From Candidatus Aenigmatarchaeota archaeon (lineage in GTDB: Archaea > Aenigmatarchaeota > Aenigmatarchaeia > QMZP01), in contig JBDRSV010000024.1 in NCBI GenBank assembly GCA_043824495.1, forward strand, positions 32,001 to 96,000: DNA of 64,000 bases, in the 5' to 3' direction. The notes under the pieces are model-generated. The model searched no databases and was not told the origin of the DNA. It saw nothing but the letters and a program-made list of their open reading frames with translations. The stretch's first letter is position 1. Each line of letters opens with the position of its first letter. Below, piece after piece: positions 12,805-33,226 of this stretch. Made by a program: the position numbers and the translations under genes.

Positions 12805-13788
12805 TTAGAATAAATGATCATCTACAAGCCTTGCTTCCCCGCCAGGTTTGCATACAAGAACCTTTTCTATCCCTTTTATCTTGGATAATCTTTTTCCAAT
12901 TTCTTTTACATCTTTCTCTAAACACATTATCTTAACCTGAGGACCAGCATCGATTGTGAAGTAGCTTTCCAATCCTTCTTCTCTCCAGTCCATTACAGAA
13001 TGAATAACTCTCATAGTAACATCATTCCAGTAGATTATTGGAGGTTTTGTTGTCATCATGGTTGCATGCATTTTCAAACAATTATATTCGGCTGTCTCCC
13101 CAACTTTTGTGAAATTCTTTTCTTTTATCCCCTCTCTCACTTTATCTAAATCTTCATTCACAGTTTTTAGCCATCCATCATAATAAGGACACGTTGCAAC
13201 AGTTTGAGACATTCCTGCTCTACTTTTTACTTTTTTTTCTTTTGTTGATGTGATAACAGTAACAATTCTAAATTCTTTCCAGAAATTCTCGTCAGCTATT
13301 TGTACACCAAAAGAATCACTTCCGTCTTCTTTCTCTCCTTTAATCCATTCTACAAAACCGCCTTCTACAGATCTACTTGCAGATCCAGATCCTCTTCTAG
13401 AAAGAATTGAAAGTTCTTTTTTGTCTAAATTCAAGCCAGCAGCTTTTGCTCCTGCAACAGACAATGCGGCTAAACCAGACGCAGAAGAAGCTAATCCAGC
13501 AGCTACAGGAAAATTTCCTTTAGAAACTATCTTAGCTTTGTCTTTTATTCCAGCCATTTCTCTGATAACATCTAAATGGTCTAAAGTGCTAGCGCTTTCT
13601 AGTTCTTCTCCGTTGAGAATGAAAACATCCTTCTCATACTTAGGATCAAATTCGACAGTGGTATGAGTATTCAAATCACCTAGAGTCAAGGATATACTAC
13701 CATTATTAGGAAGCATAAGCTTTTTGTCCCTCTTTCCCCAATACTTAACCAATGCTATATTGGCATTAGCAATTGCTGTTGCTTTCAT
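12805..13788 (-). CDS. mvaD: Diphosphomevalonate decarboxylase
   Basis: ANANIALVKYWGKRD, GLASSASG, RRGSGSASRS, SRAGM, TIDAGPQV. ATG 13788 preferred over GTG 13797 because the GTGA there looks like the SD. Confidence 0.92.
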   Translation of the reverse strand: MKATAIANANIALVKYWGKRDKKLMLPNNGSISLTLGDLNTHTTVEFDPKYEKDVFILNGEELESASTLDHLDVIREMAGIKDKAKIVSKGNFPVAAGLASSASGLAALSVAGAKAAGLNLDKKELSILSRRGSGSASRSVEGGFVEWIKGEKEDGSDSFGVQIADENFWKEFRIVTVITSTKEKKVKSRAGMSQTVATCPYYDGWLKTVNEDLDKVREGIKEKNFTKVGETAEYNCLKMHATMMTTKPPIIYWNDVTMRVIHSVMDWREEGLESYFTIDAGPQVKIMCLEKDVKEIGKRLSKIKGIEKVLVCKPGGEARLVDDHLF

Positions 13789-13835
13789 ACAATTCACTTT
13801 TATTTGTAATTATTATAATAAACATTTAAAAGTCT

Positions 13836-13908
13836 GCCCCGGTGGCTCAGTCGGTAGAGCGTTGCATTGGTAATGCAGAGGTCGCGGGTTCAATTCCCGC
13901 CTGGGGCT
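13836..13908 (+). tRNA. tRNA-Thr(GGT), intronless
   Basis: Full cloverleaf: GCCCCGG/CTGGGGC acceptor, GCTC/GAGC D stem, TTGCA-TTGGTAA-TGCAG anticodon arm, GCGGG-TTCAATT-CCCGC T arm. Confidence 0.97.
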
Positions 13909-13916
13909 CTGCAATG

Positions 13917-13924
13917 TTTATAAA
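13917..13924 (+). promoter_or_regulatory. Putative TATA box for pre-tRNA-Trp
   Basis: TTTATAAA ~40 bp upstream of the reconstructed tRNA-Trp 5' end. Confidence 0.5.
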
Positions 13925-13964
13925 TAAATGAATCAACTATAGCAATATGTCATAACCCCGATGT

Positions 13965-14160
13965 GGGACAGTTTGTTGACTAGTTAACAAATTGCGCAAA
14001 GTCGTGAGGTAATGGCATCCTGGTAGGCTCCAATCGTCTCGATATGGAGATATGAGAAGGTTTTTTGACTTTCGGATGATAAGAAGAAACCTGCTTATGG
14101 GGGTTCGACTGGCTCTTTTCTGTGCGAGCAGAAAACGGTACGGAAGTCCCCTCGACCCCA
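13965..14160 (+). tRNA. tRNA-Trp(CCA) interrupted by three introns (3/4: 13968-14000; 37/38: 14034-14088; 59/60: 14110-14146)
   Basis: Joining 13965-67 + 14001-33 + 14089-109 + 14147-60 gives a 71-nt cloverleaf GGGGTCGTGAGGTAATGGCATCCTGGTAGGCTCCAAACCTGCTTATGGGGGTTCGACTCCCCTCGACCCCA. BHB motifs: 3/4 strict (TGTG/CGCA helix), 59/60 (TTCG/CGGA helix), 37/38 relaxed (CTCC/GAAG, one mismatch). Confidence 0.88.
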
Positions 14161-14172
14161 CCTTACTCAGAC

Positions 14173-15345
14173 TTGAAATCTCTTAAGTCTTCTGTAGTCA
14201 GTTCTGAGTCTTCAGACTGGGACATATACAATACTATACGACGGTATACTAACCATCTAAACAAAATACCACACTGGGATACAGCTGAAAATAACAAAGA
14301 ACTGATTCTAAATTTCTTGAAAAAGACAGAGATAGAAGGCATTGGACTAGTGCAAAGAGTCAAGTATGTGGATGCATTTCGTACCCTACTAACCGCTGTT
14401 AACAAAGATATGACCAAATTCACAGGTAAAGATCTGGAAGAATTCCTCTATCACATGAGAATCTACAAACCAAAAACAAGGCATACACGGTGGTACTCCA
14501 TAAAGAAATTCTTTAGGTACATAGACAAGAAGGACATCTACAACAACATAGAGCCCCATTTTGACAAGAAAGGAATGAAACTACCTGAAGAATTGCTAAC
14601 AGAAGATGACATCAAAAAGATGATTTCAGCAGCCAATAACATAAGAGATAAGGCTCTGATATCGGTTTTATACGAATCGGGTGCTAGAATAGGTGAACTC
14701 CTGACTAGAAGAAGAAAACACATCACATTCGACGATTATGGAGCAGTCATGACTGTGGATGGAAAGATAGGCATGAGGAGAGTAAGGCTAATACACTCTG
14801 TTCCTCTTCTAGCTAACTGGATGGAGAATCATCCAAAGAGAGATGATGACAATGTATTCCTTTGGATTAGTATGAATGATTATACAAATCCAGTCAAGTA
14901 CATGGCTATAGCCAATATGCTCAAGCTAACAGCCAAACATGCAGGAATAAAGAAGCGGATATATCCACATATATTCAGACATAGTAGAGCAACCTACATG
15001 GCCAACAAACTAACAGAACAACAACTAAAAGTATACTTCGGTTGGACTGGAGATAGTGCAATGGCTTCTACATATGTTCATCTATCAGGTAGAGATGTGG
15101 ATAACGCAATCTTGGAACTTAATGGAATAAAGGAGAAGACAGAAGAGAATGGAAACGGCTTCAAGGTAAAGAACTGTCCAAGGTGCAGAGTTAACTCTGA
15201 CCCCTCATCAAAATACTGTAATAGATGTGGTATGGTATTGGATGATAACGAAGCCTTTGATTTGAAAGATTTAACCTCAAATGAAGACTTCAAAGTCTTC
15301 CTACAAGAAGCATTCGTAAAATGGAAAGGTTCAAGAGTGGTTTAA
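14173..15345 (+). CDS. Tyrosine recombinase/integrase with C-terminal zinc ribbon
   Basis: LYESGARIGEL (Arg), GKIG (Lys), HIFRHSR, FGW, TYVH (Tyr), CPRC...CNRC. Start is uncertain: TTG 14173 assumed; the frame is open back through GTG 14122 inside the tRNA intron to a stop at 14080. Confidence 0.9.
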   Translation: MKSLKSSVVSSESSDWDIYNTIRRYTNHLNKIPHWDTAENNKELILNFLKKTEIEGIGLVQRVKYVDAFRTLLTAVNKDMTKFTGKDLEEFLYHMRIYKPKTRHTRWYSIKKFFRYIDKKDIYNNIEPHFDKKGMKLPEELLTEDDIKKMISAANNIRDKALISVLYESGARIGELLTRRRKHITFDDYGAVMTVDGKIGMRRVRLIHSVPLLANWMENHPKRDDDNVFLWISMNDYTNPVKYMAIANMLKLTAKHAGIKKRIYPHIFRHSRATYMANKLTEQQLKVYFGWTGDSAMASTYVHLSGRDVDNAILELNGIKEKTEENGNGFKVKNCPRCRVNSDPSSKYCNRCGMVLDDNEAFDLKDLTSNEDFKVFLQEAFVKWKGSRVV

Positions 15346-17035: not shown

Positions 17036-17254
17036 TTGACTCCCCTTTGCTCTGTACTGCGATTAAGAATTGTATATTAACTAACTCAAAGCACTACACG
17101 ACATACACACAATTGTCTTTCGTTGTCGCAGAGTGTTGTTTCCTGAAATACAGATGCTGACTTTACCTCGAACAAGGATCTTGTTCCAGATGTCTAAAGA
17201 GTGTCAGCGATGATATGTGGAATATGATAATTTCAATTGATAGTAAAATTTAAA

Positions 17255-17568
17255 TATACTTCGGTTGGACTGGAGACAGTGCAATGGCTTCTACATATGT
17301 CCATCTATCAGGTAGAGATGTAGATAATGCAATCCTAGAGCTCAATGGAATAAAGGAAAAGACAGAAGAGAATGGAAATGGTTTCAAAGTAAAGAAATGT
17401 CCAAGGTGCAGAGTTAACTCTGACCCCTCATCAAAATACTGTAATAGATGTGGTATGATCTTGGATGACAATGAAGCCTTTGATTTGAAAGATTTAACCT
17501 CAAATGAAGACTTCAAAGTCTTCCTACAAGAAGCATTCGTAAAATGGAAAGGTTCAAGAGAAGGTTAA
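17255..17568 (+). pseudogene. 5'-truncated integrase relic (copy 2 of the 319-bp repeat, 17255-17573)
   Basis: Encodes YFGWTGDSAMASTYVHLSG...CPRC...KWKGSREG*; lacks the catalytic Arg/Lys/HxxR region. Confidence 0.9.
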
Positions 17569-32000: not shown

Positions 32001-33226
32001 CTATCTGTTATTAACACAGCATCAGTTGAACCCAATCCTTCTTCAGATGAGAATTCTTCTGTACCGAATCTTAAAGGAATTGTAACCTCATTCATGTTAG
32101 AGAAATTCAATATGGTTTCTAGATATGTTGTATTTAGTGTTATTCTCTGTTCACTGAGATTATTACTCCTCCATATTTCAGTGTCTCCTATTCTAGTGAA
32201 TACTGCGACACCTGTTTGATTTACACTTATGTTGCTTGTGTAATGTAAATATATTGTTAAGTTGCTTAGGTTACCTGGAACATAGAAAGAACTGAAAAGA
32301 TTGATTATACCTTCTATACCAGGGAACCAATATCTATTTGTTGCATTTGATCCGAATTTAGAATCTGGTTCTGTTATGAGTTGTGATGTGTTGTACGTAA
32401 TTTTTATGTAACCGCCACCAATGAAGTTGCTTTTGTTCTTAGGGAATTGTATACTTAATGTGCTATTTGAGTTTTGATTGAAATTGGTGAAATAAGCAGA
32501 ATCCATTTCCCATTTATCTGCTGTTAGGTTCCCAATAGAATTATTTTCATAGAAGCCTGAATAAATACCATTTACATATAGAGTGAAATTGTTACCAGCA
32601 TCTAACTCTAAAGACACGTTTACTAGATTATCATAAGAAGGAAGTTCAACTATTCTGGTTATGTTACCGTCACCTACATATCCACCAAAATATACATATT
32701 TGGAACCTATCTTACCTACTTTGGTTAAGAAAACTCTGGAAACAAATCCGGATACGGGCTCACCTACATCAAAACCAGAAACTATTGTAGAAAACCTAGA
32801 GAAGTATTTTCCTTTACTTGTGCCATTCCTGTATATACTCTCATTATTTATCAGTATTTCATAACCCACTCTACTATTACTAAACAGGTTGCCTAGGACA
32901 TCTTTTGTTATGTTCTGAGCTTCTGTTATATTCCCTGTGGACCATAGAGCACCTACGATATCAAGAAGTGTTTTATCGAGATCATCTTCAACTAAATCAC
33001 CAGTGGATAAATAATATTGAATAGAAGAGAAATCTTGTAAATCACCAATTTCTACTTGTCCCATGACATTAATTACATCCTTACCTGTGTAGTATAATCT
33101 CTGATAACCAAGTTCAGGAGAAGAGTAAGTGAAAGATAGTCCTGTGAGGAATAGAGCAACAAGTACGAGTAAACTTGCAGCTACCATAGCATCTAAAGAT
33201 AGTAGAAAACCTCTTCTCATTACCAT
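29069..33226 (-). CDS. Large pilus-associated adhesin-like protein with vWA domain
   Basis: RRG/FLLSLDAMVA class III-like N-terminus; MIDAS LITDRSGS (~31991-32005), TCIACGI, MLVMSDGQAN (~30245). Confidence 0.75.
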   Translation of the reverse strand: MVMRRGFLLSLDAMVAASLLVLVALFLTGLSFTYSSPELGYQRLYYTGKDVINVMGQVEIGDLQDFSSIQYYLSTGDLVEDDLDKTLLDIVGALWSTGNITEAQNITKDVLGNLFSNSRVGYEILINNESIYRNGTSKGKYFSRFSTIVSGFDVGEPVSGFVSRVFLTKVGKIGSKYVYFGGYVGDGNITRIVELPSYDNLVNVSLELDAGNNFTLYVNGIYSGFYENNSIGNLTADKWEMDSAYFTNFNQNSNSTLSIQFPKNKSNFIGGGYIKITYNTSQLITEPDSKFGSNATNRYWFPGIEGIINLFSSFYVPGNLSNLTIYLHYTSNISVNQTGVAVFTRIGDTEIWRSNNLSEQRITLNTTYLETILNFSNMNEVTIPLRFGTEEFSSEEGLGSTDAVLITDRSGSMGICDVSSPLGPCDCGAPAPCNRERINVVRDADTDFVESVLENKTGNRVSLVTYGSDLSCGSHDFSSDIVSLQTDINTYDSTCGSTCIACGIFDATRRLRDETLIYSAINRSTTWLYNTSYPDSEPPVENASEWTNKSYNDTFWQSGDAILGFESVGYDYLPNIDTNTGNNGGSYFLRKHFDVNDVSTVESAQFFIMADDAVELYLNGHLIENDTNEYNGTYWNRPNLIFFDGFENDSVSYLVETEDTGEFSYVDGFATTSSCACSGPSGTCIRHEGATTDFSNATMTYSRTDGTYNITVRYCPESDSSAPHDEWRVYVDDVEVDNWFANELTQSWTDRTIQNIVVNNGEEITLECDRTSGSTYCRADYITLGQGGSSSPLSGWTVDSTNDGGVVTVSQSEALSGTNVVKFYGDGSSPNEMWIEKEINISNITSAILEYYWRVEDLETGEYGYLDVYDGAWHTEVRTHTGNNGDHTTNSGDYYREIVNLNIFNHVDDFKIRFRSNAIDAESSDTFLLDNVSVFEQVIVYNVPAAQLPGGTPYFYTGDNVVAVKLKNDDAESAKFDLEMNITRSRFKSMLVMSDGQANVCIPGSSCANAVASADAIARACEARDEFNITVYAVAFGATADVDTLNKTACWDCEADDWIPNCNRFFNSSNADDLQEIYKRIAQDIVEASFVAQILNISGNASINSTLFNDSFINFDYVTTIEPPEYGEATLTFEMPRLSISTGSATITNNTTTTKEGWFFVPNFTKVIDSKITSYSSEYWTDRLYVKNESDDNWNLVYWLGNYSDEYLGLGDPYIVQIPPEYLGVGENNSVRLGTGVSPDNGTGGSPDARVIYTLRIGNINLQGYSDVFPKGKGSTVTVYYDFNGDDIVDGSSNVAVGADPTDIFDPQNDSVDDAFMRLLNNLNFIFDKNINSYGDGTIGDPYDGLNDTNPIDLQITEEVNFDSSSIGGIPSLWGPSELEIRIWI

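Follow-up and report, generated by a model that had tools for sequence, protein, structure and literature searches.

Does an archaeal genome in which standard searches find no gene for tRNA-Trp encode one after all, and in what order might its transcript be matured? The question is raised by a locus of Candidatus Aenigmatarchaeota archaeon (DPANN; assembly GCA_043824495.1), situated in the 64,000-nt stretch of contig JBDRSV010000024.1 (C24) that was analysed here (positions 32,001–96,000, forward strand; hereafter the window). The assembly (G000) comprises 1.01 Mb in 29 contigs with ~36% G+C, and is 80% complete and 0.2% contaminated. A protein encoded near the locus has its nearest relatives in MAGs labelled Candidatus Aenigmatarchaeota. 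ARAGORN and Rfam recovered only 23–25 tRNA genes from it, none of them for Trp, as anticipated by an earlier note, made from the sequence alone, according to which the genome would appear to lack tRNA-Trp. Within the window, tRNA-Thr(GGT) at 13836–13909 is the only tRNA seen by ARAGORN and the Rfam tRNA model. At 13959–14160 the note had placed a tRNA-Trp(CCA) gene split by three introns, which would probably escape standard tRNA scans; the unspliced gene indeed gave no ARAGORN match, with or without intron mode, and the Rfam tRNA model did not detect it at a threshold as loose as E ≤10. The neighbourhood formed by tRNA-Thr and tRNA-Trp is conserved across relatives.

Exons, introns and splice motifs of the tRNA-Trp locus

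Deleting 13968–14000, 14034–14088 and 14110–14146 (33, 55 and 37 nt) leaves the 71-nt cloverleaf that had been claimed, which ARAGORN identifies as tRNA-Trp(CCA) with fully paired acceptor (7/7), anticodon (5/5) and T (5/5) stems. The four exons (all + strand) are GGG at 13965–13967 (tRNA positions 1–3; placed by ARAGORN, the solver described below and comparison with relatives); 14001–14033 (positions 4–37), with the remainder of the acceptor 5′ strand, the D arm, the 5′ strand of the anticodon stem and CUCCAA; 14089–14109 (positions 38–59), with A38, the 3′ strand of the anticodon stem, the variable loop, the 5′ strand of the T stem and TTCGAC; and 14147–14160 (positions 60–73), with T60, the 3′ strand of the T stem, the acceptor 3′ strand CGACCCC and A73. 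The spliced product has U8, A14, G18G19, U33, the T-loop TTCGA and discriminator A73, and its CCA end is not encoded in the gene. A73 and the G1-C72 pair are identity elements of archaeal tRNA-Trp; both are found here together with the CCA anticodon, and A73 ends all 42 genes reconstructed across the order (see below).

The first intron, at position 3/4 (13968–14000, +), is 33 nt long and has a strict hBHBh′ motif with a BHB score (H,h,h′) of (4,3,11). Its central helix pairs TGTG (13962–65) with CGCA (13995–98), including one G-U, the bulges are GG^A and AA^G, and the outer helix pairs CGA (13959–61) with TCG (14002–04). The third intron, at 59/60 (14110–14146, +), is 37 nt long and likewise has an hBHBh′ motif (score (4,5,3)), with an 8-bp hairpin closed by a GCGA loop, a central helix of TTCG (14104–07) and CGGA (14141–44) that includes one G-U, the bulges AC^T and AG^T, and the T stem as outer helix. 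All the coordinates and motifs given in the earlier note agree with the sequence except one, as the hairpin of the 3/4 intron was described as 12 bp long and is in fact 11 bp, since only 2 nt would remain in the loop if a twelfth pair formed. The canonical 37/38 intron (14034–14088, +; 55 nt) has a relaxed hBH motif, in which the central helix CUCC/GAAG contains a C34·A mismatch (three of four central pairs) and the inner helix is absent. The relaxed motif is confined to this intron, and the non-canonical 3/4 and 59/60 introns are strict. Placing the boundaries of the canonical intron at 35/36 or 36/37 gives the same product with worse helices, and these placements were rejected by inspection. 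Minimum free energy folds of the precursor and of the individual arms recovered the intron hairpins and outer helices and not the exact two-bulge geometry, a result counted neither for nor against the three-intron reading.

Uniqueness was assessed with a solver that is seeded at any YUCCAR site and needs full pairing of the acceptor (7/7), anticodon (5/5) and T (5/5) stems and a TTYRA sequence in the T loop, permitting one intron on either side of the canonical one if a splice motif is present. The assembly has 3,399 YUCCAR sites, counting both strands, and the solver run over all of them gave two solutions. One is this locus with identical junctions; the other is an A/T-rich sequence on contig C15, which ARAGORN rejected. 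A second Trp-like locus was found in the assembly neither by a motif search nor with the spliced product as BLAST query, and the check for another tRNA-Trp, also proposed earlier, leaves this locus as the only credible candidate in the 80%-complete assembly. We are highly confident that 13965–14160 is a real, spliced three-intron tRNA-Trp(CCA) gene, and its sequence suggests that it is functional and apparently the only tRNA-Trp gene of the genome.

Distribution of the introns across the order

In the order, 91 genomes were searched by BLAST and by pattern; with the solver, the gene was then rebuilt in 42, and ARAGORN called 41 of the 42 products tRNA-Trp. The sole exception, G083, was kept in the 42 and in the intron tallies; for G037, the automatic solution was dropped from the reconstructed set, the solutions for these two genomes being wrong or ambiguous. 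Allowing as many as three introns did not suffice to reconstruct the G037 gene, which may be split or contain more interruptions. Among the 42 genes, the 37/38 intron is present in all, the 59/60 intron in 17, an intron at 58/59 in one and the 3/4 intron in 6. The carriers of the 3/4 intron belong to two families (G000, G001, G006 and G063 in f1; G032 and G038 in f6), the five other than the genome studied here having homologues of its intron. The full combination of 3/4, 37/38 and 59/60 recurs in G006 and G032, and G008 combines 19/20, 37/38 and 59/60.

Presence and absence of introns within genera coincide exactly with the predicted junctions. G045 has no 3/4 intron and ends at the same junction, whereas its congeners G038 and G032 have the intron; similarly, G001, of the same genus as the genome studied here, has no 59/60 intron, and its T arm is uninterrupted and shows no difference from that of the spliced product. 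The splice motifs also show compensatory changes. At 59/60, four genomes have A-T in place of G-C as central pair 4. At 3/4, G063 has A-T in place of G-C as central pair 2, family f6 has A-T in place of C-G as outer pair 3, which is formed between leader and exon, and the inner helix of the intron covaries at several positions. The acceptor pair that spans the 3/4 intron compensates as well, being G4-C69 here and A4-U69 in G001 and G006.

A core of CCCUUUU-hairpin-AAAAGCG...CGGAAAG is common to long 59/60 introns (54–85 nt) of tRNA-Trp in three families, at loci L087 (G032), L093 (G005), L123 (G053) and L111 (G036). Because this core is shared in three families, the 59/60 introns appear homologous across the order, and the 37-nt intron of the window looks like a shortened member of the set. 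The tRNA-Trp loci of family f4 contain a further repeated hairpin element, CCUUUCUUUU-loop-AAAAGAAAGG, in introns and flanks (loci L017, L019, L020 and L021 in G034, G037, G040 and G031, respectively).

The 3/4 motif bears on the order of maturation. Part of it is supplied by the 5′ leader (13959–13964, +), where CGA forms one strand of the outer helix and TGT provides three of the four bases on one side of the central helix. Leader and exon covary in the six genomes with this intron, the outer helix being CGA/TCG here, CAAGA/TCTTG in G032 and G038 and CACG/CGTG in G001 and G006. Since the motif takes leader bases −6 to −1, the endonuclease must act on a 5′-extended precursor. The earlier proposal that splicing precedes RNase P cleavage gains support from this leader–exon covariation and by the presence of RNase P RNA in the genome (full length, 76 bits, slightly under the Rfam gathering threshold), and it can soundly be inferred from these sequences that splicing would come before 5′ trimming. 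Inspection of the sequence shows an A/T-rich TATA-like box (TTTATAAATAAAT) at 13917–13929 (+), ~40 nt before G1, which is a putative archaeal promoter; transcripts started from it would carry a leader of ~15 nt.

Guide-like elements in the canonical intron

Two antisense elements lie within the 37/38 intron, each followed by a D-like box. Element 1 (14045–14055, +) consists of UGGAG and AU followed by a D′-like box, AUGA (14052–55), and pairs with C32–A36, the fifth base upstream of the box (G14047) standing opposite C34 (14030). Where its first base is a pyrimidine, the (Y)UGGAG sequence reaches R37 in the pairing, and it is always followed by two bases and an xYGA box (AUGA here, CUGA in f6). 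The arrangement YUGGAG-NN-NYGA was found in 46 of the 91 genomes, although part of the survey set was chosen with a pattern that includes this element, so that its conservation is partly by construction in that subset.

Element 2, AGGUUUU (14058–64), is followed by a second D-like box, UUGA (14065–68), the whole spanning 14058–14068 (+). It pairs with 14086–14092, a segment that straddles the 3′ splice junction, and G14060, the fifth base upstream of its box, is opposite C39 (14090). The pairing run is 7 bp long here and at least 6 bp in 23 of the 42 genomes, comprising all of f2, f4 and f6 plus G000, G001 and G055. In 18 genomes the C39 register has a run of 7 bp or longer, and no genome has one at a register shifted by 1 to 3. 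Covariation links guide position 3 to the last intron base (U-A, C-G, A-U) and guide position 7 to nucleotide 41; the A-U variant at position 3 gives pairing in the precursor only and none once the tRNA is spliced. A C-like box, AUGAUAA (14076–14082, +), is the likely kink-turn partner of the UUGA box and conforms to an RUGAYNN motif conserved near the 3′ end of the intron; between the second D-like box and the C-like box, families f4 and f2 have a hairpin and a 3-nt bulge, an arrangement like that of a kink-turn. This tandem layout is retained across f2, f4, f6 and three f1 genomes.

The elements recall a known system. According to PMC11408192, where it cites Clouet d'Orval 2001 and Singh 2004, a box C/D RNA in the tRNA-Trp intron of Haloferax directs methylation at positions 34 and 39. 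As far as that account goes, the two introns share the tRNA, the intron position and the targets, and in both the guide and the splice motif compete for pairing, which would place modification before splicing. The two also differ in layout, as the window's intron has tandem antisense elements with two D-like boxes and one C-like box near the 3′ end, in place of the canonical C-D′-C′-D order with two kink-turns, and no C box was found 5′ of element 1. Rfam at E ≤10 over 13700–14400 gave neither a tRNA nor a C/D family on the Trp locus. The Haloferax tRNA-Trp intron is ~105 nt long; the intron here is much shorter at 55 nt, and its position 39 is C, not U.

Fibrillarin and L7Ae, two candidate partners of such a guide, are encoded in the genome. 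No PF01798 match for Nop5 was found in the 80%-complete assembly, and Nop5 is present in 24 of 25 relatives; two reading frames upstream of fibrillarin, considered as candidates for Nop5, matched no Pfam family and no solved structure. A second L7Ae-family match, with one in-frame TAG, lies ~2 kb past the end of the window (C24:98048-98296).

Guide function of the elements is, in our estimate, at even chances or slightly better, because the layout is non-canonical and the duplexes are short (5 contiguous bp for C34 in the window, 7 bp for C39). The same features suit a different reading, in which the elements are a structural scaffold, for instance as alternative helices on which the relaxed splice motif is displayed or as a site where L7Ae binds as a chaperone, and not guides. 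With its short duplexes, its non-canonical box order and only one evident C-like box, the intron departs from a regular guide; element 2 is also missing in most f1 genera, element 1 is degenerate in G002, and Nop5 was not found in the genome's own assembly. Other observations speak against a scaffold. Both elements are spaced such that the fifth base upstream of an xUGA box faces nucleotides 34 and 39, the two at which, according to PMC11408192, the intron guide of Haloferax tRNA-Trp directs modification; the C39 register alone has pairing runs of 7 bp or longer; the pairing covaries across the splice junction; and fibrillarin and L7Ae are present. We therefore consider a purely structural role unlikely. 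The more specific form of the guide reading, that the intron is a stripped-down dual guide with a single kink-turn, methylating its own precursor at C34 and C39 in a fixed maturation order, is an evenly balanced proposition. Any such methylation would precede splicing, since the guide duplexes share bases with the 37/38 splice motif and the anticodon stem. If the proposal is right, the guide in the tRNA-Trp intron already existed before DPANN and Euryarchaeota diverged, and it can accommodate a non-canonical layout of its boxes.

Integrity of the gene and its proposed maturation

Directly after tRNA-Trp lies a reading frame for a tyrosine recombinase of the phage integrase family (14122–15345, +), which is already open within the 59/60 intron. 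Its final 300 nt (15029–15328) are duplicated 2.2 kb downstream (17252–17551) with 94% identity, and the two repeats bracket an M20-peptidase gene on the opposite strand. No second, attR-type copy of the tRNA 3′ end was found elsewhere in the window. A run of T that follows tRNA-Trp in relatives is not present here.

An integrase gene next to the tRNA would make the locus a recombination hot spot, and it has to be asked whether the sequence is a decaying tRNA-Trp pseudogene with insertions, the working copy lying in the 20% of the genome that is unassembled. The incompleteness of the assembly (80%) leaves room for such a copy, but the spliced stems are intact with the conserved bases in place, every insertion has a splice motif with compensatory changes, the same architecture occurs in independent genomes of two families and no second Trp-like sequence was found in the assembly; we regard a pseudogene as highly improbable. 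That the cloverleaf is a chance or assembly artefact of freely chosen deletions, given that three free deletions make many sequences tRNA-like and that energy-based folding does not reproduce the exact splice motifs, is effectively refuted by an equally free search of 2 Mb (both strands genome-wide), whose one other solution ARAGORN rejected, and by orthologues in separate assemblies with the same exons and junctions.

The splicing endonuclease for this gene has to be sought in relatives. No EndA was found in the genome's own 80%-complete assembly, either with Pfam models PF01974 and PF02778 or by tblastn with the EndA proteins of three relatives. EndA is encoded in 39 of 40 relatives, and 38 of the 40 have it as a long reading frame (most ~400 aa; for example L038:834-2015:-) that carries the EndA catalytic domain, usually matched twice; another EndA-frame example is L030:1474-2031:-. 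A separate alpha-type EndA of roughly 185 aa is found in 22 of these 40 genomes. Two EndA proteins of relatives were compared with solved structures. The 393-aa protein of G006 matched the epsilon2 enzyme of ARMAN-2 (PDB 4FZ2) over its full length (residues 10–393, E = 8.7e-100), and that of G001, from the same genus, matched its alpha and betaC units (chain residues 106–387, E = 8.5e-81). EndA architecture, which the earlier note had suggested typing, is accordingly epsilon2-like in G006 and G001, whereas the genome's own assembly offers no EndA to type. The note had also argued that the locus implies an endonuclease of relaxed specificity; the long EndA frames in 38 of 40 relatives and the two matches to the ARMAN-2 epsilon2 enzyme are in keeping with this. 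The relaxed motif is that of the canonical intron and not of the non-canonical ones.

Positions 3/4 and 59/60, tRNAs with three introns and intron-rich DPANN tRNA sets have all been published (PMC4090602, PMC3239211, PMC4033280), and the note was right that non-canonical and multiple tRNA introns are known from Thermoproteales and ARMAN (PMC4090602, PMC4033280, PMC3239211). The reviews PMC4090602 and PMC4033280, in their summaries of Sugahara 2007/2008, describe introns at 25/26, 37/38 and 56/57 in tRNA-Pro(UGG) of Pyrobaculum islandicum and 3/4 introns in certain Thermoproteales. The link between non-canonical introns and a broad-specificity endonuclease is established for Thermoproteales and ARMAN-2 (PMC4090602, PMC4033280, PMC3239211). 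The Thermoproteales share with the present lineage up to three EndA-type introns per tRNA, with 3/4 and 59/60 among the non-canonical positions, a mixture of strict and relaxed BHB motifs and genes missed by standard tRNA finders. They differ in being TACK rather than DPANN and in having an (alpha-beta)2 enzyme rather than the likely epsilon-type enzyme here; by comparison with them, it is the non-canonical introns that are strict here and the canonical one that is relaxed.

ARMAN-2 provides another parallel, being a DPANN archaeon with a small genome, many disrupted tRNAs and 59/60 introns. Its enzyme cuts motifs of both the strict and the relaxed type, and a 59/60 intron is among its substrates (PMC3239211). 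Its three-unit epsilon protomer (alphaN-alpha-betaC, ~390 aa) has a full-length homologue in relatives of this genome. Published literature has treated epsilon2 as confined to Micrarchaeum and Mancarchaeum (PMC5829648), whereas here the epsilon type is found in an Aenigmatarchaeota order, often beside the ~185-aa alpha-type EndA and with none found in the genome's own assembly. Three results appear to go beyond the published work consulted, namely the occurrence of an epsilon-type EndA throughout an order of Aenigmatarchaeota, a candidate tRNA-Trp intron guide with a non-canonical arrangement that extends over the order in a DPANN lineage, and a clean series of intron gain and loss at two sites. 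Together they would extend the ARMAN-2-type epsilon endonuclease and, as a prediction, the tRNA-Trp intron guide to Aenigmatarchaeota, and they leave the established picture of archaeal tRNA splicing unchanged. The 42-genome orthologue set, with its clean presence and absence of the 3/4 and 59/60 introns, can be used for studying gain and loss of protein-spliced introns.

Kaneta et al. (PMC5829648) noted that incomplete DPANN tRNA sets point to undetected disrupted genes. The present locus explains the apparent lack of tRNA-Trp in this MAG, and introns of this kind explain that of about half of its tRNAs and probably of those of many DPANN MAGs, where tRNA genes seem to be missing because introns cut them in ways that common annotation tools do not model. 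Intron-split tRNAs missed in this manner can bias completeness estimates and calls of auxotrophy.

For the tRNA-Trp transcript itself, we propose the following pathway. Transcription would begin ~15 nt upstream of G1, so that the precursor keeps its leader. Together with L7Ae, Nop5 and fibrillarin, the 37/38 intron might then direct 2′-O-methylation of C34 and C39 as a compact dual guide of box C/D-like type, after which the RNA would refold into the three splice motifs, the one at 3/4 being built with leader bases −6 to −1. An ARMAN-2-like epsilon-type endonuclease, as predicted from relatives, would cut after the second base of each 3-nt bulge, and RtcB would join the four exons. A proper acceptor stem needs exons 1 and 2 to be joined; RNase P would therefore act only afterwards, removing the leader before CCA is added. 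The complete order of methylation, three splicing events and 5′ trimming would be imposed by the second guide duplex, which reaches over the 3′ splice junction, and by the dependence of the 3/4 motif on the leader; taken jointly with the dual guide, it may or may not hold with about equal probability. RtcB is present in the genome; it lies on contig C2 of G000 (C2:319-3141) in two pieces (profile positions 1–52 and 49–426) that are ~1.5 kb apart within one open frame of 1,002 aa, in what looks like an intein-sized insertion.
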